Below, one piece after another: positions 30,134 to 49,745 of a stretch of 64,000 bases of DNA. The translations under genes and the position numbers were made by a program. This DNA comes from a virus, in the IMG/VR virus record IMGVR_UViG_3300033074_002003. One strand, 5' to 3'. The notes beneath the pieces are model-generated. The model did not search any database and was not told the origin of the DNA. It saw only the letters and a list, made by a program, of their open reading frames with translations. Every line of letters begins with the position of its first letter. The first letter of the stretch is position 1.

Positions 30134-30134
30134 T

Positions 30135-30989: not shown

Positions 30990-31228
30990 CCTTTTGCCCA
31001 CTTGCAGTACTCGCTGTGAGCGTGCTTCTGTTCGGGAGAACCCACGATGTACAGGTCAACTGCCCCGCGGAGCATAGTCTCCGCGTTGCCGCGGATCGAT
31101 ACGCGGTAGATCTCTAGAAGTTCTCCGCGGGCATCCAACTTGCGACACCGACCGATGACGACGCCCACCCACTTCCCGCGCTGGCCCGTGACGAGGTCAC
31201 CGACGCGAAATAATTTCAGGTGATCCAC
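30986..31228 (-). CDS. array-family small protein (C-terminus divergent)
   Basis: MDHLKLFRVGDLVTGQRGKWVGVVIG. Confidence 0.5.
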   Translation of the reverse strand: MDHLKLFRVGDLVTGQRGKWVGVVIGRCRKLDARGELLEIYRVSIRGNAETMLRGAVDLYIVGSPEQKHAHSEYCKWAKG

Positions 31229-32295
31229 TTGATCCCCTCGGTGAAGGCGACGTGCTCTGCCTCTTCGTTCGGGTTCGTCGTGTACCGACAGTCCCTCCCG
31301 AGTCTTTTCTCGCGTTCATCTTCGATAATGCTGTAGCATGTCCCGGTCCCGTAGCCATTTATCTTCTTCGTGTCGCGCCTGATCTCCTCGATCGTCTCGA
31401 TGTCGACAGGATCACACGCGACCTCTGTATCGTACGCGGGCGAGGTGATGAAGTAGACGTTGCGTATGCGGCGGGGTACTTCGCCGCCATGGCGGAAGCG
31501 TTCGACGTAGAACCAATCGATGCGATCTGCCCACGACAGTTTGTCCCACTCTGTGTGGTGGCGATTGTTGATTTCGGCTCGGGCTTTCCATTCGGCGTGG
31601 TAGTGCTCGCAGCCCGCAGTGGGCCAGAAATCTGGACGTATTGGAGTTCCGAGGAACGCGTACACTTTCTTTCCTGGTTTCGTTGGGATCGTACACGCAC
31701 CCAGGAAGATGTCCGTTGCACCGTTTCGCCTCGCGTATACGCGCCCGACGACGAGCGACGAGGGCGTGATCGCTGGGCGCGATTTGCTGCCCCCGCGTGT
31801 CCCATCGATCAGGTCGCGCTGCTTCTCCATTTCACTGTGCTGTTCGCCGCCCACGAGCACGAGCCTCACGGCGGAGCCAAGGATCCCCCAGACGAACTGC
31901 CCCACGATTTGGCCTCCCGCGAGGACACCGCGGTGTCGCAGCGCCTCGAGGAGCTGGTCCTCGCGGAGGTCGAAGAGTCGCTTCTTCTCGTCGATGACGC
32001 GGTACGCTCGTCCGCCCTCGTTCCGCACTTCGAGGTCGATGATCCGCAGCGTCGTTGGGTCGTTCTTCTCGCGTGTGACCTCGACGTCAGGCGTGGGCGT
32101 ACCCGTGAGCGACCACCTGTACCCGTTTGCCCAGCGTTCCGCAGTCGCGGGCGCTGTTTTCGAGTCGGGATTGTACGCGAACGTAGGGACGACCTCTACG
32201 ACCTCTCCTGTGAGAAGTATCCTCTTCTCTGCCTTGCGAGAGACGTAGCACACCTCGTTGAGCAACCTCATAGCACCCGTCGTCTTGCTCTTCAT
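31216..32295 (-). CDS. hypothetical 359-aa protein embedded in array (non-family)
   Basis: ATG MKSKTT overlaps upstream family stop (ATGA); coherent translation; antisense ORF is Arg/Pro junk. Confidence 0.5.
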   Translation of the reverse strand: MKSKTTGAMRLLNEVCYVSRKAEKRILLTGEVVEVVPTFAYNPDSKTAPATAERWANGYRWSLTGTPTPDVEVTREKNDPTTLRIIDLEVRNEGGRAYRVIDEKKRLFDLREDQLLEALRHRGVLAGGQIVGQFVWGILGSAVRLVLVGGEQHSEMEKQRDLIDGTRGGSKSRPAITPSSLVVGRVYARRNGATDIFLGACTIPTKPGKKVYAFLGTPIRPDFWPTAGCEHYHAEWKARAEINNRHHTEWDKLSWADRIDWFYVERFRHGGEVPRRIRNVYFITSPAYDTEVACDPVDIETIEEIRRDTKKINGYGTGTCYSIIEDEREKRLGRDCRYTTNPNEEAEHVAFTEGIKWIT

Positions 32296-32483
32296 GTTCT
32301 CTCTCCCTCGAGCTCGCTCTCCCACACGTAACTCATCGTCCCGTCACACCACATGATGTGATGATCGACAGCGTGCAGATGTGTATCACCAAAGCTTTTT
32401 ACGATGACACCAGTGACGTTATCTTTCTCGCGACCCTCAATTAACCGCGAGTGAAGCACCAGATCGCCGACGTGTCTGATCAC
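32292..32483 (-). CDS. array-family small protein (GTG start)
   Basis: VIRHVGDLVLHSRLIEG; GTGA coupling. Confidence 0.45.
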   Translation of the reverse strand: MIRHVGDLVLHSRLIEGREKDNVTGVIVKSFGDTHLHAVDHHIMWCDGTMSYVWESELEGERT

Positions 32484-32695
32484 TCGCACAGGAGGATCGC
32501 CTCTGGGTGCGTGCGTACCCACACCGTGCCAACTTCAAATACGTGCCGCCCATCTAACCCGCTGTGTGCGGAATGAATCTGAAGGGCGCCTGGGTCTGTG
32601 CCGATAACGACACCGATACCAGACGGGTCGTACTTCACGCCGTCCACTTCCTCCTCGACGTGAACGAGATTCCCGACGCGGAACCCGTGTGTCAT
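32480..32695 (-). CDS. array-family small protein (divergent: FRVGNLVHV)
   Basis: ATGA coupling. Confidence 0.5.
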   Translation of the reverse strand: MTHGFRVGNLVHVEEEVDGVKYDPSGIGVVIGTDPGALQIHSAHSGLDGRHVFEVGTVWVRTHPEAILLCE

Positions 32696-33072
32696 CGCGC
32701 GAGCAGTCTGAAGTTGCTGAGCATCATCGCGCGGTGCTTGCTGATGTTACTACCCACGGCGATCATGACCTCGCTTCCACCCAGAACGACAACGAGCGCG
32801 GGGAACATCTTGCTGTCAGCGCGGCTTAGGTAGAGGTCGCCCGCACGCGCGAGCGACACACTTCGCCCATCCTCGAACGCGTCAGCGATCTCACCGACGT
32901 CGACAGTATCACTCGCGCTCGTATCACTGCTATCCAGCTCGGTGACCACTGTGCCCCGGAGTTTCACACACGCGTTCGCGAGCGCCATCGCGCGCATCCG
33001 GAACTCGTCTGTGTACTGTTGCGCTGTCATGGGTCTCTCGGTGAATGTACCACACAGAGTGCGAGAGTTCAC
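32692..33072 (-). CDS. array-family small protein (N-terminally extended; ends FRLLAR)
   Basis: ARAGDLYLSRADS...; ATGA coupling. Confidence 0.5.
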   Translation of the reverse strand: MNSRTLCGTFTERPMTAQQYTDEFRMRAMALANACVKLRGTVVTELDSSDTSASDTVDVGEIADAFEDGRSVSLARAGDLYLSRADSKMFPALVVVLGGSEVMIAVGSNISKHRAMMLSNFRLLAR

Positions 33073-33075
33073 GTG

Positions 33076-33390
33076 TCACCGGTACTCCATGACAGCGATG
33101 CTGCGTCTAAAAGTGCTTCGATCCGGGCGGCAAGTCATCCTGCGGTTGTCAACGAGAGCGCTCGAAGAGAACGTAGAATCGAGTGCAATCCAGATCGAAT
33201 GTGTGATAATTGCGATGTCACCCACTCGACCCAGCTGTTTGCAACGTGTGGCGCCCTGGCGCAACATTGCCACGAGCAGCTCTCGCGTCTCGACAACAAA
33301 CCACGTATAATCACTGTCGCGCGCGTGGCTCAGTATGACGAACCCGCCGCTATCGATCCACCGGAGCGCTACGTCAATATCGACTGTCAT
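33076..33390 (-). CDS. array-family divergent member (RVGDIAI motif internal; ends AVMEYR)
   Basis: ATG MTVDIDV overlaps upstream stop (ATGA). Confidence 0.4.
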   Translation of the reverse strand: MTVDIDVALRWIDSGGFVILSHARDSDYTWFVVETRELLVAMLRQGATRCKQLGRVGDIAIITHSIWIALDSTFSSSALVDNRRMTCRPDRSTFRRSIAVMEYR

Positions 33391-33686
33391 CGGGCGATCC
33401 TCCGACCCCTGAGGTGAATGACAGCGTTTATGTCTGTTCTGATTGCCATCATCGACTGCGAGTAAACCATGTAGATACCGACAAGCTCGCCGGGTGGGAA
33501 CATGTCTATGCTCGTTATCACCATCAGCACGGCCGTGCCTACCAAGACTAAGTCGCCGACGCGCACGATAGTGTCTTGTGTCGTGCGAGCGGCGCCTGAC
33601 TTCGAAAAGTTCCCGTACGTGAACCACGTCCACCCGCGCTTCTCGGGACAGAAATCGCGGTCTACGAGAGACGCGTACGTCGACAC
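33387..33686 (-). CDS. array-family small protein
   Basis: IVRVGDLVLVGTAVLMVI...GRRIAR. Confidence 0.55.
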   Translation of the reverse strand: MSTYASLVDRDFCPEKRGWTWFTYGNFSKSGAARTTQDTIVRVGDLVLVGTAVLMVITSIDMFPPGELVGIYMVYSQSMMAIRTDINAVIHLRGRRIAR

Positions 33687-33982
33687 TACGCGATCCTCTT
33701 GCCCAAAATGGCGGCTATGCTAGAGCGCGTATCAATGCGGTACATTTGGGAAACGGGAAGAGCGAAGCGCCGGGATGTATGTCGGTGTTTAAATCCCTCG
33801 TAGATGATCGCGTCGGCCGTGCTACACGAGAGGAGAAGAGCGCCGTCGTCACGAATGATCAGGTCTCCACATCGCACGAGCGACATCTTTCCCGTTCTCG
33901 CTCTTACCTCACAGATGTTTCCCGCTGAGAACGCATAGCTTGTTCGCGGTACATCCTTGTGATCGTAGTGCAAGTGGATCAT
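33686..33982 (-). CDS. array-family small protein (start uncertain; core begins MSLVRCGDLII at about 33886)
   Basis: ends ILGKRIA; upstream 33983-34118 coding status unclear. Confidence 0.4.
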   Translation of the reverse strand: MIHLHYDHKDVPRTSYAFSAGNICEVRARTGKMSLVRCGDLIIRDDGALLLSCSTADAIIYEGFKHRHTSRRFALPVSQMYRIDTRSSIAAILGKRIA

Positions 33983-34118
33983 GTGGTGTATGTCGCGCGA
34001 ACTTTTGTCTGCTGAATGCACGGTGAACAAGAATAGCCCGGGAAGGGGAGGCGCGAACGAGACGAGCCTCTCTGTCCACGAGTACGTCCCACCCGTGCGC
34101 CACAGGTAGCGATTGAGA

Positions 34119-34541
34119 TCAAGCGTCTTCACTGGGCATCTCCCCGACGTACGCGCCCATCCACCCGACTGTGATGAGTTTGCCGTACGTTGTCGACCAG
34201 TACGTGAACTCCTTCCTGTCGTTGAATTTAAGGTGAACGAGCACGTCATAGCGAGTGATGATGAGGTCACCGACCATCGCGTGACGGAGGCGCGGTCCAG
34301 GCGACATGCTCGCGTTGTAGATGTCGTACGCGCGATAATGGCTATCGTGTAGGTAGAGCTCTGTGTACTCCATGCGCGTCTGCACCACGTGGCCGTCAGC
34401 GCAGTACATCTTCATCGTGAGCACGTATCCCAGTCCCGTGCGCGAAGAAGGGACGACGTCAGTGATCACACACGCCCTCCCGTTGCTGTTGGGCATCACT
34501 TTCACACCGATGAGGTGCGTGCAGTCTCGCCTCTTCTCCAC
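34119..34541 (-). CDS. array-family protein (140 aa; AMVGDLIITRYDVLV; ends MPSEDA)
   Basis: family motif central; longer N-terminal region. Confidence 0.45.
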   Translation of the reverse strand: MEKRRDCTHLIGVKVMPNSNGRACVITDVVPSSRTGLGYVLTMKMYCADGHVVQTRMEYTELYLHDSHYRAYDIYNASMSPGPRLRHAMVGDLIITRYDVLVHLKFNDRKEFTYWSTTYGKLITVGWMGAYVGEMPSEDA

Positions 34542-34543
34542 AG

Positions 34544-34969
34544 TCAGTCCTCCTCAATGAGACGACCGACTAGGAGCTCAGCATTTACGATGTACTGTAG
34601 TGGTGACGGGAATTCTACTTCTGCGGGACAGAAAAATTGAAAGTATTCCGAATCTTCGAGTGACTCGCCGAGGAAGACTTTGATTCGTGGCTCGTCCTCC
34701 CATCGCCACCTGAACTCGACGAGGTCTCCCACCCTGAGAACGACGGCCCTACACTCGCCCCGCCTGATGATGTCCCTGAACGGAACGGCGATCGCGTGAC
34801 GGTGAGCGTCGCGATCGTATGTCTCAAACTGGAGCGGTTCAACGTACTCCCGGCCGGGAGCGTCTAGGAACCCAATGGCTTTCGGGTATGGCTGCGTCCA
34901 CTCTACGATTTGTTCGGGAACGATGTGTGGTGCACTGTACGTTAGGTACCGCGAAAAATCTGGGTGCAT
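34544..34969 (-). CDS. array-family protein (141 aa; LRVGDLVEF; ends RLIEED)
   Basis: TGATG junction with upstream gene. Confidence 0.45.
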   Translation of the reverse strand: MHPDFSRYLTYSAPHIVPEQIVEWTQPYPKAIGFLDAPGREYVEPLQFETYDRDAHRHAIAVPFRDIIRRGECRAVVLRVGDLVEFRWRWEDEPRIKVFLGESLEDSEYFQFFCPAEVEFPSPLQYIVNAELLVGRLIEED

Positions 34970-35343
34970 CAGGCAAGCCTCTTGCCGATGAAGATGTCAA
35001 CATCATACATGACATTGCACGATCTCTTGGGTGATGCGGATCTAAATACGCAGAAGTTGCCAAGCCAGACGCCGAGGTGACCCATGTCGTTCGCCATGAG
35101 ATCACCAACTCGTAGGAGCTGCGCGAAGTCGCTAAGTCGAGTGCCCGGGCGAACGTCCAAATCGAGTCGCTGGCTCATGCGTGCCCACCCCAGTCGCTGG
35201 CGCGGGCCAACAATGCTGGGTGAGATGATGTGTGCGCGTGGCCATGTGACGTATCGCCTCTCGAGGATCAAGTTGTCGTTCGTGTCCGTGAACGAGACAC
35301 GGAAGTGGTGAGACGTGTCGGGATGTTCTGCGTCTGCTCTCAC
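34969..35343 (-). CDS. array-family protein (124 aa; LLRVGDLMAND; ends GKRLA)
   Basis: ATGA coupling. Confidence 0.5.
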   Translation of the reverse strand: MRADAEHPDTSHHFRVSFTDTNDNLILERRYVTWPRAHIISPSIVGPRQRLGWARMSQRLDLDVRPGTRLSDFAQLLRVGDLMANDMGHLGVWLGNFCVFRSASPKRSCNVMYDVDIFIGKRLA

Positions 35344-35702
35344 GCGATACGATCTCCTACGACGACTGAGCAGTTCCCACCGAAATCATAGAGCCCCACG
35401 AGGTCCGGAAATTCGCCTGGTGACGAGGACATGAACACAACTCTATCACCTGTGTACACGAGCAACACGCCGTCTGACACGACGAGATCACCGACGCGAA
35501 GGAGTACGAGACGCGAGTGCCTGTAGTGAAGCACGCTCGTATATGAATTAGACGCTTTTACGAAGCGCGAGCCGCTCACCATCTTCACATACTCGAGGAG
35601 GTGCGGTGGCGTGTAGCGGTGGGCGTCGGGATGAAATCGCACGATGCCGTCGATCGGGGAGATTTGGATCTCGAAACTGCAGACATTTGACCTGAACCTC
35701 AC
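35340..35702 (-). CDS. array-family protein (120 aa; VLLRVGDLVVSDGVLLV; ends GDRIA)
   Basis: ATGA coupling. Confidence 0.5.
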   Translation of the reverse strand: MRFRSNVCSFEIQISPIDGIVRFHPDAHRYTPPHLLEYVKMVSGSRFVKASNSYTSVLHYRHSRLVLLRVGDLVVSDGVLLVYTGDRVVFMSSSPGEFPDLVGLYDFGGNCSVVVGDRIA

Positions 35703-35917
35703 GAGATCACCCTCAACACGCGAAAGATGTTGTCAGTCACCAAGTCAACGAGCGTTCCACGATAAGGATTCAACGAAGGAAAATAGAATTCGAGGCGGTC
35801 GTGACCGTAAGCAGCAGTCGTACCGCAGTACACAGCAATGCAAGCGCCAGTAACGCTCTCGAGCTCGAGAAAGTCGCCCGTCCTGTACACGCGCCTCTCC
35901 ACCTGTGTTTTCTTCAT
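35699..35917 (-). CDS. array-family small protein (YRTGDFLELE; ends LRVIS)
   Basis: ATGA coupling. Confidence 0.5.
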   Translation of the reverse strand: MKKTQVERRVYRTGDFLELESVTGACIAVYCGTTAAYGHDRLEFYFPSLNPYRGTLVDLVTDNIFRVLRVIS

Positions 35918-36120
35918 CGCGCGAGGATCCTGAACTGCCCATTGTGCGCAAACTGCCTGAATTTCACGACGCCCACGCCCGTCGACGCGAAGAACACGCG
36001 CAGTTCCTCGCCGTCGGGCCCACCAATCCAGACGCACATCCAGAGGGGCGTCCCTGGTTTCGAGCTCAGGTGCAGGTCGATGAGGTCGCCCGTGCGGAGC
36101 GATTGGTGTGACGCATTCAT
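35914..36120 (-). CDS. array-family small protein
   Basis: LRTGDLIDLHL...FRILAR; ATGA coupling. Confidence 0.55.
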   Translation of the reverse strand: MNASHQSLRTGDLIDLHLSSKPGTPLWMCVWIGGPDGEELRVFFASTGVGVVKFRQFAHNGQFRILAR

Positions 36121-36638
36121 CGAGCGAGGACCTTACCGAAGACGATAAACCCGTACGGGATCACGCGAGCGTAGAATTCACACATACCGATACGGTTTGG
36201 GAAATAAAACTGTGCTGAGACAGATTGTTCACCGCGAGGACCAAAGTAGATCCCGGGCGCGTCAACCTCCGTCCTCGAGAAGAGGTCACCCACTCGCAGG
36301 CGTCGAGGTTCCCACTCACCAACGGGACGAAATTCCGCACGGGGAAACCACATGACACCGCACTTCGGAACGTAGCGCGGGGGTTCTCTCCCACACCATA
36401 CCTGCCCGATCGAGCTACCATCGATCGCGATCACGCTCATCTCACTGCCACACCCGCGCGGGTACCAGCCGACGACCTCACCGCTCGCGACGAGAAAGAC
36501 CTCACCGCAGATCTCTACAAGCTCGAGGCCCGAGTGGATGTCGAAGTCTGTGGACATGTCGCTGAGCATATACTCAGCCTCTATCGCTGACGGCAGCGAC
36601 TGGCGATCTGGGTGCGGGAGTGAGACACTCTTCTTCAC
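36117..36638 (-). CDS. array-family protein, long form (173 aa, about 110-aa N-terminal extension)
   Basis: C-terminal half RLRVGDLFSRTE...GKVLAR; ATGA coupling. Confidence 0.5.
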   Translation of the reverse strand: MKKSVSLPHPDRQSLPSAIEAEYMLSDMSTDFDIHSGLELVEICGEVFLVASGEVVGWYPRGCGSEMSVIAIDGSSIGQVWCGREPPRYVPKCGVMWFPRAEFRPVGEWEPRRLRVGDLFSRTEVDAPGIYFGPRGEQSVSAQFYFPNRIGMCEFYARVIPYGFIVFGKVLAR

Positions 36639-36832
36639 CTGATGACGTACTCCCGTGCCGTCGTCTCGAAGTCGAGCCGCGCAAGATAAAGGGGCCCGTG
36701 CATATACTTCGGATGTGTCCAGATGTACATTGTGGAAAATTTTCCGGCGTCTGTGCGCGACGTCGTTTTCAGGACAACCGCGACGCCGAAGTGTTTGATG
36801 ACGAGGTCTCCCACACGGACAAAATCGATCAT
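36635..36832 (-). CDS. array-family small protein (YIWT subgroup)
   Basis: FVRVGDLVIKHFGVAVV...EYVIR. Confidence 0.55.
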   Translation of the reverse strand: MIDFVRVGDLVIKHFGVAVVLKTTSRTDAGKFSTMYIWTHPKYMHGPLYLARLDFETTAREYVIR

Positions 36833-37053
36833 CGCACCAACAGACACCCGTAGAGTGTCATGAGATCAACGCGCGTCATCTCACCGCGCCTTTTGGGCCC
36901 GCAGTCCGTGGTCCAGAGGTAGATTGCTGTGACACCTGAGGTACTGCTGTGGTCAAGTGTCATATCGAATAGCTCGAGCGCGACGGCAAATCCATGCAGT
37001 CGAACTAGCAAGTCGCCGGCACGGACGCAAGTGAAGTCTTGTGTGCACTTCAT
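36829..37053 (-). CDS. array-family small protein (YLWT subgroup)
   Basis: CVRAGDLLVRLHGFAVA...CLLVR. Confidence 0.55.
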   Translation of the reverse strand: MKCTQDFTCVRAGDLLVRLHGFAVALELFDMTLDHSSTSGVTAIYLWTTDCGPKRRGEMTRVDLMTLYGCLLVR

Positions 37054-37277
37054 CGCACGATCTCGTGCTCGAGGATGTCAGAGATTTGCATCTCACGGCT
37101 AACGTAGTGCTGTTCGGGATCGTCGGTCCAGAAGTACATGGTCCAGAAGTACGTTGTTGTGAAGCGTGGATTACCCGTGATGAACGGTCTCACCACGACG
37201 GCGATGCCCCTCTTCCTGATCACGAGGTCGCCGAGCCTGACGTACGGTATCAGCTTATCGGGCACCCTCGGTATCAT
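37050..37277 (-). CDS. array-family small protein (YFWT subgroup)
   Basis: YVRLGDLVIRKRGIAVVV...HEIVR. Confidence 0.55.
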   Translation of the reverse strand: MIPRVPDKLIPYVRLGDLVIRKRGIAVVVRPFITGNPRFTTTYFWTMYFWTDDPEQHYVSREMQISDILEHEIVR

Positions 37278-37501
37278 CGAACGACGCTGCTTTCCATGAT
37301 GCAGATCATGTTCATCGCCGAAATCGTACCCAATCTAGAATCGGTACGGTCGGTCCAGAGGTACATCACAGTGAAAAATCCGGGGGTGTCCTTGTGCTGT
37401 TCACGACCGATTTCGACCATGACAGCGAGTCCGGCAGCACGACACACGAGGTCGCCCGTCCTCACGAAGCGAGCGACGCGAACAGAGGGCCACGCGCTCA
37501 T
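37274..37501 (-). CDS. array-family small protein (YLWT subgroup)
   Basis: FVRTGDLVCRAAGLAVMV...SSVVR. Confidence 0.55.
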   Translation of the reverse strand: MSAWPSVRVARFVRTGDLVCRAAGLAVMVEIGREQHKDTPGFFTVMYLWTDRTDSRLGTISAMNMICIMESSVVR

Positions 37502-37698
37502 CTGACAATCGCCTCTCCACTGAGCATGATGTTTTTAATCTGTGTGGACGAACTGCGCCCAGAGGGCAGGAACACTACAGCGTTTGAGCGTTTGAGTGAC
37601 TCTTCGCCCCCGATGACGATGGCGAGGAAGTCGAATCGCACGACGAGATCGCCCACGAAGAACTGAACCCGTCCGTCATTGATATCGAACTTGATCAC
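37498..37698 (-). CDS. array-family small protein (GTG start)
   Basis: FFVGDLVVRFDFLAIVIG...EAIVR. Confidence 0.5.
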   Translation of the reverse strand: MIKFDINDGRVQFFVGDLVVRFDFLAIVIGGEESLKRSNAVVFLPSGRSSSTQIKNIMLSGEAIVR

Positions 37699-37913
37699 CT
37701 GACGATCCCCTTCAGCGCGCGCTGTGGGCCATACGCAGAAATGAACTCTGTCGAGAGGGACTCCCTCTCGTCCCACAAACCGCAGGCTCGCGTGGTGTTC
37801 CCGCTAACCGGTCCGATTACGACAGCGATACCATCTACTCTGATGACGAGGTCGCCAACGAACGTACGGTGGGTTGCGCCCGTGGGAATGTGCCACTTTT
37901 CTGCTCGCGTCAT
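37695..37913 (-). CDS. array-family small protein
   Basis: RTFVGDLVIRVDGIAVVIG...KGIVR; ATGA coupling. Confidence 0.55.
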   Translation of the reverse strand: MTRAEKWHIPTGATHRTFVGDLVIRVDGIAVVIGPVSGNTTRACGLWDERESLSTEFISAYGPQRALKGIVR

Positions 37914-38212
37914 CGCCATATTTGGTGCTTCTTCGTGAAGCGTGATTCCAAAATATAATGCAGCGGGAGGACCCTAGCACTGCGCAGGATGCAGTAGACC
38001 GGCACGTACCCTAGCGCACAGAATATAGTGAGGTCGCCGATGACCACACACACCGCTTCGTCACTGATCACAAGGTCACCCACCCTGAAATACTTCTGTG
38101 AACATCTCACCGAATGAGCCTCTCGTGCGCGCCCACAGTCCCCTTCACCTCGACGTCTCGAGTCACCCGTCATGAGAAGAGATCCGATTTCCGAGGACAA
38201 AATTTCGCTCAT
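37910..38212 (-). CDS. array-family small protein
   Basis: YFRVGDLVISDEAVCVVIG...HQIWR; ATG 4 nt after upstream stop. Confidence 0.5.
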   Translation of the reverse strand: MSEILSSEIGSLLMTGDSRRRGEGDCGRAREAHSVRCSQKYFRVGDLVISDEAVCVVIGDLTIFCALGYVPVYCILRSARVLPLHYILESRFTKKHQIWR

Positions 38213-38216
38213 CGGA

Positions 38217-38468
38217 TCACCTCCACACCCGGTCACCATCCACGAGCGTCTCATACGTGGTCGTTCTCGCCCAACGTGGGAGGTCCGCGCCGCCCGTGCG
38301 TTCGCAGAATCCCGTCGCGAGGCACAGCTCTAGGGGAATTTCTCTCCCACCCGTATCGTACGGGTCCCACTTCGTCTTAAAGTGACCCAAAATCACGTAG
38401 ACGTACGTTCGAGACACGAGGAGATCGCCGATCCGGAGACGGGTTCCTGTCTCGCGAATCTCGCTCAT
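38217..38468 (-). CDS. array-family small protein
   Basis: LRIGDLLVSRTYVYVILG...DRVWR. Confidence 0.55.
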   Translation of the reverse strand: MSEIRETGTRLRIGDLLVSRTYVYVILGHFKTKWDPYDTGGREIPLELCLATGFCERTGGADLPRWARTTTYETLVDGDRVWR

Positions 38469-38677
38469 CGGATCACGTATTCCTCTCCCATGACTCGGGA
38501 TGAGATGCTAAAGGTCAACCACAGCCAGCTTCCGTCACCGCGAGTGTAGAATCCAACCATCTCCGCGTTACCTCTTTCTGGATCCACACCGCACGTGATT
38601 AGAGTGCAGTTACGCCCAGCGAGGAGGTCTCCTACGCGTAAGTGCTGTGCGTTGTACTGATGTGTATCGGCGCTCAT
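38465..38677 (-). CDS. array-family small protein
   Basis: LRVGDLLAGRNCTLITCG...EYVIR. Confidence 0.55.
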   Translation of the reverse strand: MSADTHQYNAQHLRVGDLLAGRNCTLITCGVDPERGNAEMVGFYTRGDGSWLWLTFSISSRVMGEEYVIR

Positions 38678-38895
38678 CGCACGAAATCCTCTCCGCGACA
38701 GAGATAGTTTCCGATCTCTACTTTCCCGTAGTCTCGACTGTACCACCAACCGTAACAGACATTGAGGATCGTGTCGTTAGTGATCCCGCCCGTACCGCGC
38801 CGACCCGGTCGCACGACAACGCAAAGCGAGTCGGTGCGAATTATCAGGTCGCCCACACGATATTTCTCTACCCAGCGTCCCGAGGCGTCGCTCAC
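38674..38895 (-). CDS. array-family small protein (GTG start)
   Basis: YRVGDLIIRTDSLCVVV...EDFVR. Confidence 0.5.
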   Translation of the reverse strand: MSDASGRWVEKYRVGDLIIRTDSLCVVVRPGRRGTGGITNDTILNVCYGWWYSRDYGKVEIGNYLCRGEDFVR

Positions 38896-39107
38896 CTGAT
38901 CACCAAGTCTGGCCGCGCAAGCGCCTCTGCCCAGGTTGTCGTCTCCCACTCAACGTGTCTGTCGTTCCACCGATAGAATCCCGTTGTCATCACGACGGGC
39001 ACTTCATTTTCTTTTCCCTCGTCGCGTTCTGTGATCACGTAAATGTAGCGGAATGAGACGAGAAGGTCGCCGACGCGAAACTTACCAATAGTACCAGCAG
39101 TGCTCAC
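38892..39107 (-). CDS. array-family small protein (GTG start)
   Basis: FRVGDLLVSFRYIYVI...DLVIR. Confidence 0.5.
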   Translation of the reverse strand: MSTAGTIGKFRVGDLLVSFRYIYVITERDEGKENEVPVVMTTGFYRWNDRHVEWETTTWAEALARPDLVIR

Positions 39108-39292
39108 GAGATCACCTTCCAATCCTCCGAACGGTGCGCGGGCAATCTGATTCCCAACCAGCGACAATTATTGCTAACGTAGTTGAATCCCACCACAGAA
39201 CAGTAGGCATCGAAGGGCTCGTGTTCAACAACGACGTAGGTCGAAAGCCTGGTCACGACGAGGTCTCCGATCTGGAGTGTCATCGAGTTCAT
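39104..39292 (-). CDS. array-family small protein
   Basis: LQIGDLVVTRLSTYVVV...WKVIS. Confidence 0.6.
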   Translation of the reverse strand: MNSMTLQIGDLVVTRLSTYVVVEHEPFDAYCSVVGFNYVSNNCRWLGIRLPAHRSEDWKVIS

Positions 39293-39483
39293 CTCACCCT
39301 CTTCACGCCCGCGCGGGGAAAATCCAGCGAGGAAACCCAGTCTTCGCGCGGTACTCTAGTCCATCCCGGTGTTGTCCTGATCGCGGGCCAAATGCCATCA
39401 ACGTCGCGACCAACGATCACATAGAGGTCAAACCTGAATATGATCAGGTCTCCGACTCGCAGGCGTCGCTCCGCTTCACTCAT
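39289..39483 (-). CDS. array-family small protein
   Basis: LRVGDLIIFRFDLYVIVG...VKRVR. Confidence 0.6.
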   Translation of the reverse strand: MSEAERRLRVGDLIIFRFDLYVIVGRDVDGIWPAIRTTPGWTRVPREDWVSSLDFPRAGVKRVR

Positions 39484-39671
39484 CTTACCACCCGCGCGCT
39501 CGCATCACGGATGTCGAAGGCGCCCACGTCGAGGCCCACCCACTCGCACGAACCGCTCCTGCGATAGTAAAATCCCTTCGCTGTCCATATTCCCTTCTTC
39601 TCGCTGACGATCACGTAGAGAACGAGCGGAGTCACCACGAGGTCACCGATCCTGTAGCTGAAGCCGTTCAC
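39480..39671 (-). CDS. array-family small protein
   Basis: YRIGDLVVTPLVLYVIV...ARVVR. Confidence 0.6.
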   Translation of the reverse strand: MNGFSYRIGDLVVTPLVLYVIVSEKKGIWTAKGFYYRRSGSCEWVGLDVGAFDIRDASARVVR

Positions 39672-39871
39672 GAGATCGCCCTTCTTGCATCTGTCGCCCG
39701 CGCGCCGAGCCGAGTGCGGACCCAGTCCCAGCTCCCTCTCCAGTAGAATGACCCGACCACCGTGCAGAAGTCGTCACCGGGTCTGTGCTCGATTACAACG
39801 TAGGTTCCAGACTTCGATATGAGCAGGTCGCCGAATTTCACTTCGCGACCTGTGGACAAAATCTCGCTCAC
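39668..39871 (-). CDS. array-family small protein (GTG start)
   Basis: VKFGDLLISKSGTYVVI...RRAIS. Confidence 0.5.
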   Translation of the reverse strand: MSEILSTGREVKFGDLLISKSGTYVVIEHRPGDDFCTVVGSFYWRGSWDWVRTRLGARATDARRAIS

Positions 39872-40077
39872 CTGAACACTTTCCTTTCGCGCCGCGGCGC
39901 AGTGTGGTACCCATTGATCCACTCCCACCCGCTGCGAGTTGTGTAAAGCCCGATCGCCGTTCCGCAATCCGCGCGATAGTCTTCGCACCACTCACAGAAA
40001 ATCGCCGTCTCGTATTTAGAGACGATCAGGTCTCCGACGCGGAACGTAAATCCGGGTGACAATTTCTCTGCGCTCAT
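39868..40077 (-). CDS. array-family small protein (KLSP N-term)
   Basis: MSAEKLSPGFTFRVGDLIVSKYETAIF...RKVFR. Confidence 0.55.
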   Translation of the reverse strand: MSAEKLSPGFTFRVGDLIVSKYETAIFCEWCEDYRADCGTAIGLYTTRSGWEWINGYHTAPRRERKVFR

Positions 40078-40286
40078 CGGATCACCCGATCTGTTCTCAG
40101 CTGCTCCCTCGCGACATCGAGCATCCTGAATATCCAACTTCCGTACCTCGTCGAATACGCGAATCCTACTCCGCGTAAGCACCACGGATTTTCCTCTGAC
40201 TTTCCCACGATCACCCACGTTCCGACGTGGGTGATGAGGAGGTCACCCACCCTGAACCGCGCGGGGGACAAATTCTCATCGCTCAC
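40074..40286 (-). CDS. array-family small protein (ENLSP N-term; GTG start)
   Basis: VSDENLSPARFRVGDLLITHVGTWVIVG...DRVIR. Confidence 0.5.
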   Translation of the reverse strand: MSDENLSPARFRVGDLLITHVGTWVIVGKSEENPWCLRGVGFAYSTRYGSWIFRMLDVAREQLRTDRVIR

Positions 40287-40519
40287 GAGATCACTCTCGT
40301 CTCCGGACCCAGCCACCGCCAGACGGATATCACATCGTGGTTGTTCCACAACGATCTCCCCGTGCTCACGTTCCAGAAGAGCCCGGTCCCAAACCATTTA
40401 TTCTCGAGATCGGGTGTGGCGTCAGGATTAGCCAAGCGACCCACGATCACGTAAAGGAAAGAACTGTAGCTTGAACTGTAGACGATGAGGTCGCCCACTC
40501 GAAGTTCGACAGCGCTCAT
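40283..40519 (-). CDS. array-family small protein
   Basis: MSAVELRVGDLIVYSSSYSSFLYVIVG...TRVIS. Confidence 0.55.
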   Translation of the reverse strand: MSAVELRVGDLIVYSSSYSSFLYVIVGRLANPDATPDLENKWFGTGLFWNVSTGRSLWNNHDVISVWRWLGPETRVIS

Positions 40520-40746
40520 CTCACCACCCGTTCCCTCACGTACGTCGACGTGTGTACTCGAGTGCTCTCCCAGCACACGTCCTTAGCATTCCAGAAATAG
40601 AATCCCGTCGCGTCCCAGTACGATCGCGAAGTATCGGAGCTCCGACCCACGATCACATGGATACAGTATTTTCGCACGAGCAGGTCGCCGATTTTGAAGT
40701 TGTATGCATCCTCGTGGAGGATGGCGGGTGACAAATTCTCTCTCAT
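40516..40746 (-). CDS. array-family small protein (ENLSP N-term)
   Basis: MRENLSPAILHEDAYNFKIGDLLVRKY...ERVVR. Confidence 0.55.
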   Translation of the reverse strand: MRENLSPAILHEDAYNFKIGDLLVRKYCIHVIVGRSSDTSRSYWDATGFYFWNAKDVCWESTRVHTSTYVRERVVR

Positions 40747-40937
40747 CTGTAAATCTCGTGGTTCCACCCCGCCCACGTGTGAGCTGATGGCGCCCACACC
40801 GTGGGAGACGAAATTACAGGCGAACAGTAGACGAACCCAGAACACTCTGGCCACTCGTTCTCTCTTAACCCCACGATCACGTAGACGTAATCACGAGAGA
40901 CAAGGAGATCGCCGAGGCGAACGATCGGTTCGCTCAC
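40743..40937 (-). CDS. array-family small protein
   Basis: IVRLGDLLVSRDYVYVIVG...HEIYR. Confidence 0.6.
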   Translation of the reverse strand: MSEPIVRLGDLLVSRDYVYVIVGLRENEWPECSGFVYCSPVISSPTVWAPSAHTWAGWNHEIYR

Positions 40938-41134
40938 CTCACGACCCTCCCGCTAGCGTACTCACGGTACCATCCCGGAAAGTCCGAGAACCACCACCAC
41001 ACGTCGTTAGCCCAGTAGAACCCACTCATGTAGACATTCCCTTCGTGGGGCTCTTTGCTGTGCGGTCCGATCACGACCGCGGTCTCCTCGCCCATCACCA
41101 CGAGGTCCCCGACGCGGAATCTGCTCTCGCTCAC
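40934..41134 (-). CDS. array-family small protein (Trp-rich C-term GFYWANDVWWW; GTG start)
   Basis: FRVGDLVVMGEETAVVIG...GRVVR. Confidence 0.5.
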   Translation of the reverse strand: MSESRFRVGDLVVMGEETAVVIGPHSKEPHEGNVYMSGFYWANDVWWWFSDFPGWYREYASGRVVR

Positions 41135-41334
41135 GAGATCACCTCGTGGTCCCACGATGAGTGAACAACATTGTTTTCAAGCAGCGCACACCCGCCGCCC
41201 TTCACATAGACGATCCCAAATCCAACCGGCCACTCTCCCTCCTGTTTCACGATCACGTAGACATAGCTCTCCGAGATCGCGAGGTCTCCCAACCTGAGGC
41301 GACCGCGAGCCGCGCCCGAATCGGTGTCTCTCAC
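41131..41334 (-). CDS. array-family small protein (GTG start)
   Basis: LRLGDLAISESYVYVIV...HEVIS. Confidence 0.5.
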   Translation of the reverse strand: MRDTDSGAARGRLRLGDLAISESYVYVIVKQEGEWPVGFGIVYVKGGGCALLENNVVHSSWDHEVIS

Positions 41335-41543
41335 GAGATCACCCTCACGATCGCCGGACTGCTGGAGTGAATGCTCTTGTCGACCATCGACCGCGCGCTG
41401 CTCGGGTACCAGAAGCTGAACCCGCGAACGCGGCGTCGCGATTCGTCCGACCACGCGACGACAACATACAACCCGTACTCGCTGATGACTAGGTCACCGA
41501 TCCGGAGGCCGAACCGCCGGGGTGACAAATTCTCATCGCTCAT
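41331..41543 (-). CDS. array-family small protein (ENLSP N-term)
   Basis: MSDENLSPRRFGLRIGDLVISEYGLYVVV...VRVIS. Confidence 0.6.
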   Translation of the reverse strand: MSDENLSPRRFGLRIGDLVISEYGLYVVVAWSDESRRRVRGFSFWYPSSARSMVDKSIHSSSPAIVRVIS

Positions 41544-41740
41544 CGCACGACCCTTCCGCTAGCGATCTCTAGGTCCCACACCGAGTGGCTCGCGTACCAC
41601 CACCACTCGCCGTTAGCCCAGTAGAACCCGCTTATCGAGACACACTCTGCCTCCAGTTCTTCGCCCGAGATTCTGGTCACAACTGCGATCTCGTCGTGCA
41701 GGGCCACGAGGTCGCCCAGGCGGAACCTATTCTCGTTCAC
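41540..41740 (-). CDS. array-family small protein (Trp-rich C-term GFYWANGEWWW, near-duplicate of 40934..41134; GTG start)
   Basis: FRLGDLVALHDEIAVV...GRVVR. Confidence 0.5.
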   Translation of the reverse strand: MNENRFRLGDLVALHDEIAVVTRISGEELEAECVSISGFYWANGEWWWYASHSVWDLEIASGRVVR

Positions 41741-41961
41741 CGGATCACCCGCCTGTCCGTATACTGCAGGTCGTATGTCATCCAGTCGATGTTCACCCAC
41801 GCGCGCTCGCCCCTCAGATAATAGAGCCCGGCCGCCGGCCACACCCTCCGTACTCTGTGGCCGGTGATCACGTAGAGGTAGCGGTTCGTCACGATGAGGT
41901 CTCCCATCCTGTAGCTGAAATCGTCCGCGCAATGTGCGGGTGACAAATTCTCATCGCTCAC
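41737..41961 (-). CDS. array-family small protein (ENLSP N-term)
   Basis: MSDENLSPAHCADDFSYRMGDLIVTNRYLYVI...RRVIR. Confidence 0.6.
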   Translation of the reverse strand: MSDENLSPAHCADDFSYRMGDLIVTNRYLYVITGHRVRRVWPAAGLYYLRGERAWVNIDWMTYDLQYTDRRVIR

Positions 41962-42173
41962 GAGATCACCCTCACGATCGCCGAACTCCCTGGGTGGATG
42001 GCGTGTGTGGTCACCCGCTTCGCTCTGCTGGGTATCACGCCGTTACCGAAGAAGATCCCCAACCCAATAGCGTGTTCGTTCTCTTCCCCGAAAATCACGA
42101 CGTACGACCCGCGTCTCGTGATCACGAGATCACCGACACAGAGGCGACGAGCGGGTGACAAATTCTCTCTCAT
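41958..42173 (-). CDS. array-family small protein (ENLSP N-term)
   Basis: MRENLSPARRLCVGDLVITRRGSYVVI...VRVIS. Confidence 0.6.
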   Translation of the reverse strand: MRENLSPARRLCVGDLVITRRGSYVVIFGEENEHAIGLGIFFGNGVIPSRAKRVTTHAIHPGSSAIVRVIS

Positions 42174-42367
42174 CTCACGATCCTATGGTTCCAGTCGGCG
42201 CGCACCCAACTAACGGTCAGCCAGACAGGAAGCCCGCCCTCTTCTCCCCAGACGAACCCGCAGCATATGGCATGGGTGCTCTCGCCCCACACATCTCCCA
42301 CAACAACGTAGAGGTAACCCATCGAGACGATCAGGTCGCCCACACATATATGACGCTTCTCGCTCAC
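42170..42367 (-). CDS. array-family small protein (GTG start verified as GTGA overlap)
   Basis: VSEKRHICVGDLIVSMGYLYVVVG...HRIVR. Confidence 0.5.
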   Translation of the reverse strand: MSEKRHICVGDLIVSMGYLYVVVGDVWGESTHAICCGFVWGEEGGLPVWLTVSWVRADWNHRIVR

Positions 42368-42600
42368 GAGATCACCCGATCTTCGGGATACAGGTTCTTC
42401 TGGTCGAGCACCGCCCGGGCGAACTCCCAGCGACCCGTGTGGAGGACCCACATGAATCCCATCGCACCGTTGCACGTGAGATTCCACTCGGAGTATCCTA
42501 GGAACACCCACGTCCCGCGCACTGTGACGATCAGGTCGCCGACCCGCAGCGTAGAATTCCGCACTGGGACTCTGCACAATTCGGCCGTCCCGTCACTCAC
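42364..42600 (-). CDS. array-family small protein (GTG start)
   Basis: LRVGDLIVTVRGTWVFLG...DRVIS. Confidence 0.5.
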   Translation of the reverse strand: MSDGTAELCRVPVRNSTLRVGDLIVTVRGTWVFLGYSEWNLTCNGAMGFMWVLHTGRWEFARAVLDQKNLYPEDRVIS

Positions 42601-42863
42601 GCCCACCGGAATACCCTGCTTCCCCGACACGCATCAAGCCCGAGAATGTGAAATGACGTCCACTTCCAACACCCGTACCAGAGGTAGAACCCGCGCCCGA
42701 GTCCCGTATCGGTCACAACCAGGATCTCACACTCGTTGACGAGGAGGTCGCCGACACGGACACCGGTCTCGCCCGCGAGAATTGTCCCACGTGCACCGAA
42801 TAATTCGGCCTCCGCGCTCTCGTGAGGGGGTTGGGGATACTTGTCCATGGCTTGCAGACTCAC
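42597..42863 (-). CDS. array-family small protein, first gene downstream of the regulatory gap (ends RVFRWA)
   Basis: VRVGDLLVNECEILVV; GTG or internal ATG start. Confidence 0.45.
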   Translation of the reverse strand: MSLQAMDKYPQPPHESAEAELFGARGTILAGETGVRVGDLLVNECEILVVTDTGLGRGFYLWYGCWKWTSFHILGLDACRGSRVFRWA

Positions 42864-42870
42864 GAGAGTG

Positions 42871-42925
42871 GAATTGGGTGAGGGAATTTGAGCGAGGGTG
42901 ACGGGAGGGGGAATTGAGGGTGGGT
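42871..42925 (-). repeat. three tandem about 14-bp G-rich direct repeats (GGGAATT(T)GAG...GG) immediately upstream of 42597..42863
   Basis: ggaattgggtgagg / ggaatttgagcgagg / ggaattgagggtggg. Confidence 0.45.
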
Positions 42926-43032
42926 CGCATTTGCCACTCTATCACACACTGCAAGGAGTTGCACAGTCCCCTCTGTGCGAGAGAAACATCAGCGCTCCTG
43001 ATTCTGCACCCAAGAAAACTCACGGTGGCCTC

Positions 43033-43060
43033 CGAAAAATACCCGATCTCGGGTTTTTCG
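43033..43060. terminator. bidirectional intrinsic terminator-like hairpin (AAAAAT-ACCCGATCTCGGGT-TTTTT)
   Basis: GC stem CCCGA/TCGGG flanked by A-run and T-run; lies in 640-bp non-coding gap downstream of 43505..43702. Confidence 0.45.
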
Positions 43061-43242
43061 ACACACAGTGGGCCCTCTTTCGTACTCGCAGTCGTGTTTT
43101 TCGGTGCCCAACTCCACTCAGTCGATGTTGACCGCAGATTGTCGCTTGAGTGTGCGCAGTCGATCTCGATTCGACAGAGAAATCTCGGTGGGCGAGGCGC
43201 AACGGGTCGACCCGTTCACTTCCGATTGTCGTGAGTCTGCGC

Positions 43243-43431
43243 CTCAGTTGGGTCTCCCCGAGCAGGGGGGTAGCACCGGTGTCGAGACATGTGTTCTGTC
43301 CCTGCACATCACGAGTGGGAGTGGGCCCGCGGAGAGGGCGGGACGACCCGAGATTTTGCGCCTCGAGGCCCGTGAAATCTGCGGTGTGCACGCCTGCGCT
43401 CACCTTGGGTCTCCCCGAGCAGGGGTAGAAC
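43243..43431. repeat. two copies of a roughly 24-bp direct repeat TTGGGTCTCCCCGAGCAGGGG(G)TAG about 165 bp apart (each contains hairpin CCCC-GAGCA-GGGG)
   Basis: copies at about 43243-43266 and 43408-43431 in non-coding gap. Confidence 0.5.
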
Positions 43432-43504
43432 GCGGGTCGTCGGGAAGCGGGACGCGCCTCAGGAAGTCGAAAGCCACGAGGGTTGTCGATGCGATGGGGA
43501 CGCG

Positions 43505-43702
43505 TCATTGGGCGATCACCTCGAGCATTGTCGTGTGTACCACCAGCAGTCCTTCCAACCGCGGGTCTGAATCGTATACTTTGACGAGGCGGTGCGTGCG
43601 GCCGTCGAAGTGGAACAGGTGATTGTCGATCACGACAGCGAGTGTATGACTGCTCCACGTGAGATCGCACAGGTCACCGATCCTGAACTCGCGAGCGATC
43701 AT
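43505..43702 (-). CDS. array-family small protein (ends LEVIAQ)
   Basis: MIAREFRIGDLCDLTWSSHTLAVVI. Confidence 0.5.
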   Translation of the reverse strand: MIAREFRIGDLCDLTWSSHTLAVVIDNHLFHFDGRTHRLVKVYDSDPRLEGLLVVHTTMLEVIAQ

Positions 43703-43911
43703 CGTCCCACCAGAACCCTAATAAGGAGACCTGACGTGCAGTTGTCAAAGTATGCGGCGTGAGGTCCGGCCCAAAATGCTGTAACAACCGCGCGACTCGA
43801 GAAAAAGTCATCTTTGCTGTGGTGGACGACGACTCCAACCTCGCGCGTAGGTTCGAAATAGATGAGGTCACCGATGTGGCACTCACCAGCTCGGATTCGC
43901 GGGTGACTCAT
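43699..43911 (-). CDS. array-family small protein
   Basis: MSHPRIRAGECHIGDLIYFEPTREVGVVV...; ATGA coupling both sides. Confidence 0.5.
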   Translation of the reverse strand: MSHPRIRAGECHIGDLIYFEPTREVGVVVHHSKDDFFSSRAVVTAFWAGPHAAYFDNCTSGLLIRVLVGR

Positions 43912-44102
43912 CTTCCGCGCAGCTCCACGGGGAGCGTCCACAATCCCGCACCGCGCCTGTCGAACAGGATGCTGTCGAGGTTAACCCAAACACACTCACT
44001 CCGCATGCTGTCTTTTCGAATGACGATACCGAGCATGCTAAAGTACGTGAAGAGGTCTCCCACTCGGAGTTCGTGGATACTCATCGATGTGGGTGCCATC
44101 AC
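43908..44102 (-). CDS. array-family small protein
   Basis: LRVGDLFTYFSMLGIVI. Confidence 0.5.
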   Translation of the reverse strand: MMAPTSMSIHELRVGDLFTYFSMLGIVIRKDSMRSECVWVNLDSILFDRRGAGLWTLPVELRGR

Positions 44103-44323
44103 CTGATCACCCGCGTGATCTCGTCGCTGTAGATCAGTTGTCGGTTGTTCACGTAGTCACCCATCACGAAGTAGCACCCGATCGCTTCGACGGAGTCATA
44201 TGCTGCTGTCACAACAGCGAGCCCGTGGCGCGGCGTCCTCGCGCTCGCCGGCGACTGGGCAGTGATGAAGGTGACGCTAGGGACTGTGCGCGTGAGGATG
44301 AGGTCTCCCACGCGAGGCTTCAC
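44099..44323 (-). CDS. array-family small protein (GTG start)
   Basis: VKPRVGDLILTRTVPSV...TRVIR; GTGA overlap. Confidence 0.5.
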   Translation of the reverse strand: MKPRVGDLILTRTVPSVTFITAQSPASARTPRHGLAVVTAAYDSVEAIGCYFVMGDYVNNRQLIYSDEITRVIR

Positions 44324-44532
44324 GCGATCCTCGCCATCTCGTCGTGTTCGAAGCACAGGTCGGTCTCCCAGCGATGTCGCGGGTGTATCCAGAGAACCGC
44401 ACGGCTCCCGTCACCTTTGAATTCTGATTTGGGTGCGAGGACGATGCCGAGAGCACTGCTGAACACAGCAATGTGCTCCTCGACGATGACGAGATCTCCT
44501 ACTCTCACGTCTTCGGGACGACTGTACCTCAT
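44320..44532 (-). CDS. array-family small protein (ends MARIA)
   Basis: VRVGDLVIVEEHIAVFSSALGIVL. Confidence 0.55.
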   Translation of the reverse strand: MRYSRPEDVRVGDLVIVEEHIAVFSSALGIVLAPKSEFKGDGSRAVLWIHPRHRWETDLCFEHDEMARIA

Positions 44533-44538
44533 GGTCCC

Positions 44539-44868
44539 TCACATGAAGAGGTGAACAACCCACAGACACGCGAGGGTGAAGGCACACCAGCCCAGCCGCC
44601 ATGCCCATTCCAACCCCCAGTCGGCCGCTTGTGCATCCCGCAGTGAGGTTGAGAGGGGCACCATGCGGGTGAGTAGGGCTAGGCCTAGGATGTGGGCGGG
44701 CCTCAGGAAGGGGGCCCCGAGGGGGACGATGAACCACTTCCACAGGACCGTGCACGTCCACCCGTAGGCGAGGCCCTCGAGGGCGAGGGCCATCAGGAAA
44801 ATGGGGACGGCGCGGGCGACAGAACCCTGCCCCGCGCCGTCACTCGGTGTCTCTTCCCCTTCGCTCAT
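44539..44868 (-). CDS. small membrane protein (2-3 TM) embedded in array
   Basis: MSEGEETPSDG then hydrophobic helices; ATGA overlap with upstream gene stop. Confidence 0.4.
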   Translation of the reverse strand: MSEGEETPSDGAGQGSVARAVPIFLMALALEGLAYGWTCTVLWKWFIVPLGAPFLRPAHILGLALLTRMVPLSTSLRDAQAADWGLEWAWRLGWCAFTLACLWVVHLFM

Positions 44869-45167
44869 TCCTCGCGCTCCACCCACCTCGCGGTGTACAC
44901 TGCGTCCTCGAAGATGCACCGGGCTCTGATCACCTGGCCCGATCGCTCGTACGCGTACGCTCCGAGGAGACGGACGTCGTGCCCGGCGTGCAGGGGTCGC
45001 AGGACGGCGTCTCCGCCGATGATCCGGACGACGACGTAGGGCGTCTCTACGTTGAGGATGGGTGCCTCGAAGATGCGACCCTCCTCGTAGACGTCATCGC
45101 ACAGGAGGAGAAGGTCGCCCACCGCGGGCTGCGACTCACTCCGGGGGTGCGGCGCCACGGCGTCCAC
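44865..45167 (-). CDS. array-family protein, first member (GTG start; AVGDLLLLCDDVYEEG; divergent C-term)
   Basis: family motif; upstream AAGGGAAAGGG purine tract; start uncertain. Confidence 0.4.
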   Translation of the reverse strand: MDAVAPHPRSESQPAVGDLLLLCDDVYEEGRIFEAPILNVETPYVVVRIIGGDAVLRPLHAGHDVRLLGAYAYERSGQVIRARCIFEDAVYTARWVEREE

Positions 45168-47858: not shown

Positions 47859-47864
47859 CGGACC

Positions 47865-49738: not shown

Positions 49739-49745
49739 CTAATTT

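Follow-up and report, generated by a model that had tools for sequence, protein, structure and literature searches.

Large DNA viruses of eukaryotes are well known to carry multigene families whose members come, go and are shuffled, and these families have been linked to host range and immune evasion. In African swine fever virus (ASFV), the multigene families MGF 110, 360 and 505 have a documented role in host range and interferon evasion. Poxviruses undergo "genomic accordions", in which K3L, for instance, is amplified as identical copies for dosage and the copies later collapse. Among phages, T4 relatives and SPO1 carry hyperplastic regions or host-takeover modules of small early genes. Here we describe an array of small genes in a stretch of viral DNA of 64,000 nucleotides (nt), IMG/VR virus record IMGVR_UViG_3300033074_002003 (the whole stretch is called the window below), in which 66 open reading frames (ORFs), nearly all of them bearing one family motif, follow one another on one strand. 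We consider it probable that this array is the product of an old expansion and is being remodelled now by in-register recombination and by exchange between lineages, with each genome holding a subset of an older repertoire. A limited full-text search of the literature turned up no report of a phage array like it.

In its behaviour the array resembles the ASFV multigene families and, less closely, the poxvirus accordions. Like the former, it is a long tandem run of divergent paralogs in a large DNA virus, and close isolates differ in their copies through deletion or recombination inside the array while the paralogs stay distinct. However, ASFV is a eukaryotic virus with arrays near its genome ends and with much larger proteins that are unrelated in sequence, whereas the phage array has a bacterial host and a domain of ~70 amino acids (aa) as its unit. 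Recombination also changes tandem copy number in the poxvirus accordion, and the poxvirus gene is a host-interaction gene. The copies there are identical, whereas no two phage copies are more than 52% identical, and dosage amplification is thus not what is seen here. The T4 and SPO1 clusters likewise consist of many small co-oriented ORFs without assigned function that vary between related phages. Those ORFs are mostly unrelated to one another, in contrast to the ~65 members of one family in the phage array, with their overlapping stops and starts and in-frame joints.

The array forms a ~19-kb chain of 66 ORFs in a single orientation on the minus strand, from 26289 to 45167. An N-proximal motif of the type [RK][VIL]GDL[VIL] is present in 65 of the 66, and most of the ORFs are 62-83 aa long. 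In a six-frame scan for [VILMF]GD[LI][LIVMA], the minus strand had 55 matches and the plus strand 1. Gene starts were chosen as those overlapping the upstream stop, which gives 66 genes and matches the independent gene calls on a public contig (L005) that is identical to the window. The parts of the chain on which the argument leans are the following, with lineages B, C and D as defined further below.

36117..42600, minus strand: 29 consecutive family genes (36117-36638 through 42364-42600) belonging to the chain, the interval singled out by an earlier sequence-only reading.
36117..36638, minus strand: member of 173 aa that starts with an unrelated extension of ~110 aa, followed by the family domain at residues ~112-173.
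36635..37501, minus strand: four consecutive genes whose cores read [YF][LIF]WT, a run absent from lineage D; lineage C has two more genes of the kind.
29398-29676 and 29673-29894, minus strand: adjacent pair sharing LRLFVGDL[IL]L, 32% identical overall, each with a 90-93% identical ortholog in lineage C.
40934..41134, minus strand: first Trp-rich member, GFYWANDVWWW...SGRVVR.
41540..41740, minus strand: second Trp-rich member, GFYWANGEWWW...SGRVVR.
38217..42600, minus strand: most rearranged block, 21 genes, about half of them with an ortholog in at least one other lineage.

The sequence-only reading had claimed that nearby genes are more similar than distant ones, that subfamilies are linked to position, and that neighbours include near-duplicates. 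The first two claims hold. Rank distance and similarity are correlated in Mantel tests (r = -0.16 for identity and -0.22 for normalised score), with no permutation among 3000-5000 as low; 27 of 65 genes have their closest relative no more than 3 positions away, where 5.9 would be expected; and at 10-15 clusters there are 33-35 adjacent pairs from the same cluster, against 16-18 expected. The motifs that it had picked out are also as restricted among the 66 array ORFs as it had proposed. GFYWAN..WWW..SGRVVR occurs only in the two Trp-rich genes, the [YF][LIF]WT cores are confined to the four genes of 36635-37501, a leader E[NK]LSP is found only in six genes between 39868 and 42173, and LRLFVGDL only in the pair at 29398-29894. 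Length variation through N-terminal extension is borne out by the 173-aa product. A hidden Markov model of the family finds the domain in the members, and in long ones it lies at the C-terminal end; their extensions were also considered as degenerate second domains, and rejected as such since no second match to the model was found in them. The near-duplicates, in contrast, did not materialise. Paralog identity averages 25.8%, only 11 of 2080 pairs reach 40%, and even in the closest pair, the two Trp-rich genes with their full-length similarity, protein identity is just 51% and DNA identity 74% over 129 nt, at a spacing of 606. The longest exact tracts common to non-adjacent members (adjacent extracts overlap and were left aside) are 25-28 nt long and all lie in the 38.2-42.6 kb block, which fits this block being the most rearranged.

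Comparison with homologous arrays in related phages, which had been suggested as a check, proved informative: across four lineages gene content differs, and breakpoints could be located. The relatives are public contigs with the same flanking genes, recovered by exact-protein look-ups.

Lineage A: the window and contigs L001-L005, flank nt identity to the window 99.6-100%.
Lineage B: contig L006, flank nt identity 89%.
Lineage C: contig L010, flank nt identity ~94%.
Lineage D: contig L014, flank nt identity 95%.

Strains whose flanks are collinear at 99.6-99.8% differ by gene-sized indels of 2-9 genes, and the differences to lineages B, C and D are far greater. Outside the core, lineages A and C are collinear with 1:1 orthologs of 75-98% aa identity, whereas 38.2-42.4 kb aligns only in patches. 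In the block at 38.2-42.6 kb, lineage C has three orthologs (41958, 40743 and 39289) plus 42364 at the edge, lineage D has six (42170, 41331, 41131, 40934, 38892 and 38674), and none of the 21 genes has a clear ortholog in lineage B. Lineages C, D and B each have genes in this region that are absent from A. The array of lineage D is much shorter, about half of it having been lost, and each of the four lineages keeps 37 to 75 intact copies, with the start-stop overlap preserved. Array edges are conserved at 92-98% aa; the edges are stable and the middle turns over. Genes that seem restricted to a single lineage usually turn out to have an ortholog elsewhere, and the differences in content therefore appear to reflect old paralogs being differentially lost and exchanged. 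Among genes in 26-38 kb, orthologs are 75-98% identical and the best paralog at most 43%. Because orthologs are far closer than paralogs, the paralogs evolve independently, without concerted evolution.

Six of the eight breakpoints are in-register, in-frame crossovers within homologies of 9-30 nt, and the conserved joints at which they occur are three: the ENLSP leader, the RVGDL motif and the stop/start junction. The in-register chimeras in related genomes bear out the proposal of unequal recombination between members, and the crossovers fall at sequences to which the sequence-only reading had pointed (the 3' junction of the Trp-rich genes and the ENLSP leader), with the RVGDL motif in addition. 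The largest event concerns the window itself.

43471..43487, minus strand: deletion scar, where the window is without nine family genes present in L001, L004 and lineages B, C and D.

Given that these nine genes are also found in lineages B, C and D, the window lost them. The deletion ends were joined out of register, and a remnant that begins MTRPHRI is left. At the same site, L002 carries a chimera that equals the seventh of the extra genes of L001 up to GCGCGTCCC and the ninth from there on, with two genes removed; the crossover is in frame, in a shared K/TRVPLP motif. L003 is window-like through 41540-41740 to the stop/start junction and then continues with the sequence downstream of 40934-41134, a deletion of 606 bp. 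In a second event in this strain, the leader of 40516-40746 has become attached to the body of 39868-40077 through a crossover within GAGAGAAwTTGTCACCCG. In one chimera of lineage D the gene at 40516 contributes the N-terminus and that at 38892 the body, with the crossover in the IGDLLV codons; in another, the crossover lies in frame in the RVGDL codons, and the 38465-38677 gene supplies the N-terminus ahead of the domain from the 173-aa gene. A third crossover, at the junction of LAR-stop and ATG, joins the end of the gene at 32692 to the start of that at 30341 and removes a 359-aa gene.

31216..32295, minus strand: 359-aa gene inside the chain and unrelated to the family; phrog_12487 / phrog_2475, no assigned function, 87-95% conserved in lineages B and C.

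Each chimeric protein but one, which was seen once, recurs on 2-4 independent contigs, and the public protein set contains further chimeras (P0014, P0017 and P0027). Alleles are also exchanged between lineages. Differences between L001 and the window are mostly patchy, and the segment 36600-37060 of L001 is 87% identical to the window and 95% to lineage C. Synonymous divergence between A and C is 0.20-0.29 in the array and 0.13 in neighbouring genes.

A smaller allelic difference was seen in one of the extra genes (11443-11682 in L001, 11481-11717 in L002 and L004). The alleles differ by a stretch read in another frame (SEPSREGTSTW in L001, SVGATGPSTW in the other two) and by a 35-nt difference upstream, which together look like a compensated double frameshift.

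The array is under purifying but relaxed selection. The ratio of nonsynonymous to synonymous substitution rates (dN/dS), pooled over 46 A-C ortholog pairs, is 0.31 for leaders, 0.37 for the motif and second strand, 0.30 for the middle and 0.43 for the last eight codons, compared with 0.16 for non-family neighbours. Thus the array genes are coding and constrained, less so than their neighbours. Per-gene values range from 0.03 to 1.15, with a median near 0.35. No young duplicates were found in lineages A, B and C, in which paralog identity reaches at most 51-52% aa and 74% nt. Given that lineage dS is only ~0.13-0.3, no gene is shown to have been born since those splits, and the rearrangements observed are all deletions, fusions or allelic replacements. 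The sequence-only reading had called this ongoing birth-and-death. Loss, fusion and exchange are indeed ongoing, but for birth there is no duplicate younger than the lineage splits (flank dS ~0.13). It had named a lack of both a position-relatedness correlation and recent duplicates as what would speak against it; the correlation was found and recent duplicates were not. Its suggestion of selection for variety rather than dosage is right insofar as the paralogs are not homogenised (orthologs 75-98%, paralogs at most 52%), which fits the upkeep of different copies. Positive selection, however, is not indicated at this resolution, with a pooled dN/dS of 0.30-0.43 in all protein segments.

The joints at which crossovers fall are also conserved as DNA. 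The start overlaps the previous stop, as ATGA or GTGA, in 57 of the 66 genes, a signal of translational coupling. The 12 nt upstream of starts have the consensus GGTGATCnCG followed by ATGA, with GGTGATC 2-3 nt before the next start, and the codons of the conserved C-terminus R-V-I-[RS] plus stop read aGG GTG ATC ncG TGA. Since GGTGATC is complementary to the 3' end of 16S rRNA, the R-V-I-[RS] codons probably double as the Shine-Dalgarno site of the next gene. C-terminal types are zoned, with [IL]A[RK] endings at 28.2-36.1 kb and V[IV][RS]-type endings at 35.7-42.6 kb. The leader and its best-conserved junction are placed as follows.

40054..42167, minus strand: leader span, with six copies of the 15-nt GAGAATTTGTCACCC (E-N/K-L-S-P), where 0.14 copies are expected by chance.
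40054-40068, 40263-40277, 40726-40740, 41520-41534, 41938-41952 and 42153-42167, minus strand: the six leader copies.
41936..41973, minus strand: junction of 38 nt between genes (RVIS stop plus MSDENLSPA start), which matches 40261-40298 at 95% identity, with flanking genes at most 50% identical.

We also considered that the ENLSP leader pairs with the upstream GGGTGA and masks the ribosome-binding site. Only 2 of the 6 leader junctions fold in this way, and the minimum free energies and z-scores of leader junctions are the same as those of other junctions.

In the scenario that we favour, old tandem expansions would have left subfamilies that still adjoin, which would explain why neighbours are somewhat more alike. 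Two processes would now act on this inheritance. In-register recombination through 9-30 nt of homology at the three joints would delete runs of genes and create in-frame chimeras, and homologous exchange would carry alleles or blocks between co-circulating lineages. The outcome would be a different subset of an older, larger repertoire in each genome. Growth itself may go back to long-ago duplication or to unequal exchange between already diverged genomes, in which case the "paralogs" would have been divergent from birth. Several points weigh against this scenario. No duplication product was seen, and we infer birth by unequal crossing-over rather than observe it. Two of the eight breakpoints (the nine-gene deletion in the window and that of L003 at 11373) are out of register, the leader fusion of L003 is on a single contig, and whether some indels are losses or gains was decided by parsimony across the four lineages. 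There is no dN/dS sign of positive selection, with no protein segment near or above 1. All relatives are metagenome contigs and none is an isolate. Lastly, in structure prediction the model of 28648-28863 reaches a predicted local distance difference test score (pLDDT) of only 64, and the barrel fold described below is confident for one subfamily only.

It is quite unlikely, in our view, that the array is growing now, through tandem duplication within the genome and fast divergence under diversifying selection. The positional similarity signal and the faster evolution of array genes than of their neighbours (dN/dS 0.30-0.43 vs 0.16) would suit such growth, and the unequal recombination that does occur should yield duplications too. 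However, a gene that arose after the lineage splits should have kept more than ~85% identity to its parent, and at a lineage dS of ~0.13-0.3 no paralog pair in three lineages exceeds 52% aa or 74% nt. The seemingly lineage-specific genes have orthologs in other lineages, and the absence of any segment with dN/dS near or above 1 does not suggest diversifying selection either. Neutral decay, in which an old and now dispensable family erodes by deletion without adaptive meaning, would account for the fact that only deletions and fusions are seen, two of them out of register and leaving remnants, for the raised dN/dS, and for the loss of about half of the array in lineage D. We hold it to be unlikely, given that 37 to 75 intact copies with their start-stop overlap are kept in all four lineages, that most crossovers are in frame and yield intact genes, that orthologs are under purifying selection (median per-gene dN/dS near 0.35) and that the array edges are 92-98% conserved.

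Two further explanations would remove protein descent or recombination from the picture altogether. The similarity of neighbours could reflect DNA or RNA signals reused at junctions (ribosome-binding site, start context, leader), as is suggested by the GGTGATC that the C-terminal codons carry 2-3 nt ahead of the next start, by a leader without synonymous differences between genes that elsewhere share at most 50% identity, and by the independence of leader presence from body similarity. This is very improbable, because the GFYWAN..WWW and [YF][LI]WT motifs lie mid-protein and the similarity of the Trp-rich pair extends from end to end; the hairpin version failed, as described above. Least credible of all is that the chimeras and indels are artefacts of metagenome assembly at repeats. 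It is true that the relatives are all short-read assemblies and that L005 ends exactly at a polymorphic site. Assemblers of this kind, however, typically use k-mers longer than 9-30 nt, and the crossover homologies are shorter than the k-mers in several contig labels (k119, k127), which makes misassembly unlikely. The same chimeric proteins also recur on 2-4 contigs from different samples or sources, and the flanks are collinear at 99.6-99.8%.

The array might in addition be a built-in cassette shuffler. The joints would be kept alike in DNA partly as in-frame recombination sites, and co-infecting relatives would delete, fuse or trade binder genes against variable host defences. We put this forward as a tentative and rather doubtful extension. 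Were it true, cassette shuffling would give the phage population a combinatorial repertoire and would be a counterpart of eukaryotic-virus multigene families or antigenic-variation loci. Public metagenomes hold enough close relatives for single recombination events to be read at base resolution. Thus the rate of array turnover, selection on the joints as recombination sites and the ligands of the small barrels are now testable. Should the members turn out to be binders that serve counter-defence or host takeover, the pan-repertoire would amount to a list of host targets.

The family itself has few recognisable relatives. A Pfam search with 49 members (E up to 5) matched no family with more than one member, a search with ten members (E up to 1) gave no match except one SH3 at E 0.2, and family members had no match in PHROG. 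A profile search of 1.84 billion representative proteins returned only 43 matches, nearly all of them small and similar to array members. A PDB profile match to the NlpC/P60 peptidase MepS/Spr is weak (E ~0.007, over ~45 residues only), and this assignment was rejected since the catalytic Cys and His are not conserved; the sole invariant or nearly invariant columns are M1, G, D, L and the terminal R. Foldseek gave nothing below E 0.027 against viral models.

AlphaFold2, run on 40074-40286 with the alignment of 49 members, predicts five strands and a short helix at pLDDT 83.8, and this confidently modelled member is a putative SH3/Tudor-like small beta-barrel. Given the poor model of 28648-28863, the claim is limited to the modelled subfamily. 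The predicted fold is similar to Tudor/SH3 barrels that interact with RNA polymerase, such as the N-terminal domain of CarD/CdnL, the RID of Mfd and the C-terminal Tudor domain of UvrD/PcrA. However, the family fails the sequence-profile test for any Tudor/SH3 barrel family, with no significant family-profile match to the CarD_TRCF, KOW or Tudor Pfam families. The block at 38217..42600 has an unusually high Trp content (4.5% W) and C-termini of the form R-V-[IV]-[RS]. Isoelectric points range from acidic to basic (23 below 6 and 27 above 8), a spread that does not point to one common nucleic-acid ligand. A large collection of dissimilar, putatively barrel-shaped small proteins, conditionally dispensable and fast-evolving, would suit such a role, and we suspect that the members act as varied small binders in host takeover or counter-defence.

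A diversity-generating retroelement was considered and rejected, as there is no template or variable repeat (the longest repeat pair in the array, 129 nt at 74%, consists of two paralogs), and hypermutation of that type is not indicated by substitutions that are evenly spread over protein segments. No reverse transcriptase was found among the ORFs scanned, which were part of those in the window.

The phage is uncultivated and giant, with related public contigs of 306-329 kb, and the array makes up ~6% of a genome of roughly 306 kb. Megablast of the interval 36117-42600 against 50,697 phage records gave no match, and tblastn of neighbouring genes against the same collection found distant relatives only; thus that collection holds no cultured close relative. 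A scan of IMG/VR with the 173-aa protein and an Rfam search over the array were also without a match.

One interval divides the array into two runs.

42849..43504, minus strand: spacer of ~650 nt without a family gene, 85-92% nt conserved in all lineages.

It contains a ~22-nt motif, ACCCCTGCTCGGGGAGACCCAA, twice (near 43419-43398 and 43270-43247) and a terminator-like hairpin at 43054-43041, and it may mark the end of one transcription unit and the start of the next. Contig L005 is 100% identical to window positions 26117-43462 and ends beside the polymorphic deletion site at 43471-43487, where strain heterogeneity probably breaks assemblies.

The outermost motif-bearing genes on the minus strand, 44865-45167 and 26289-26582, are longer than most members (97-100 aa), and the former is 92-97% aa conserved across lineages, on par with non-family flanks. 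Within the coupled chain, a 64-aa ORF on the minus strand (28066-28260) has no GDL motif. Given its 97% conservation in lineage C and dN/dS of 0.08, it is a real gene, either of another kind or a very divergent family member.

Outside the array, a full-length Cpn60/GroEL gene on the plus strand (24254-25906), whose best phage matches are 45-48% identical, converges on the array end. On the other side, the array is flanked by a KaiC/DnaB-like ATPase (46878-48344, minus strand), and farther out an AAA_5 ATPase is paired with a DUF2201 (VWA/metallopeptidase-like) protein (50463-53121, plus strand); all three are conserved in every lineage. Six transfer RNA genes (Tyr, Phe, Met x2, Arg-CCT and Arg-TCT) and a transfer-messenger RNA gene with the tag ANDNGTSLALAA lie within 48831-50360, 59096-59170 and 62015-62089. 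Phage features of the window also include a T7-endonuclease-I-like gene and, at 15948-17502 on the plus strand, a GIY-YIG homing endonuclease ORF that overlaps the start of an RNA-ligase-like ORF.

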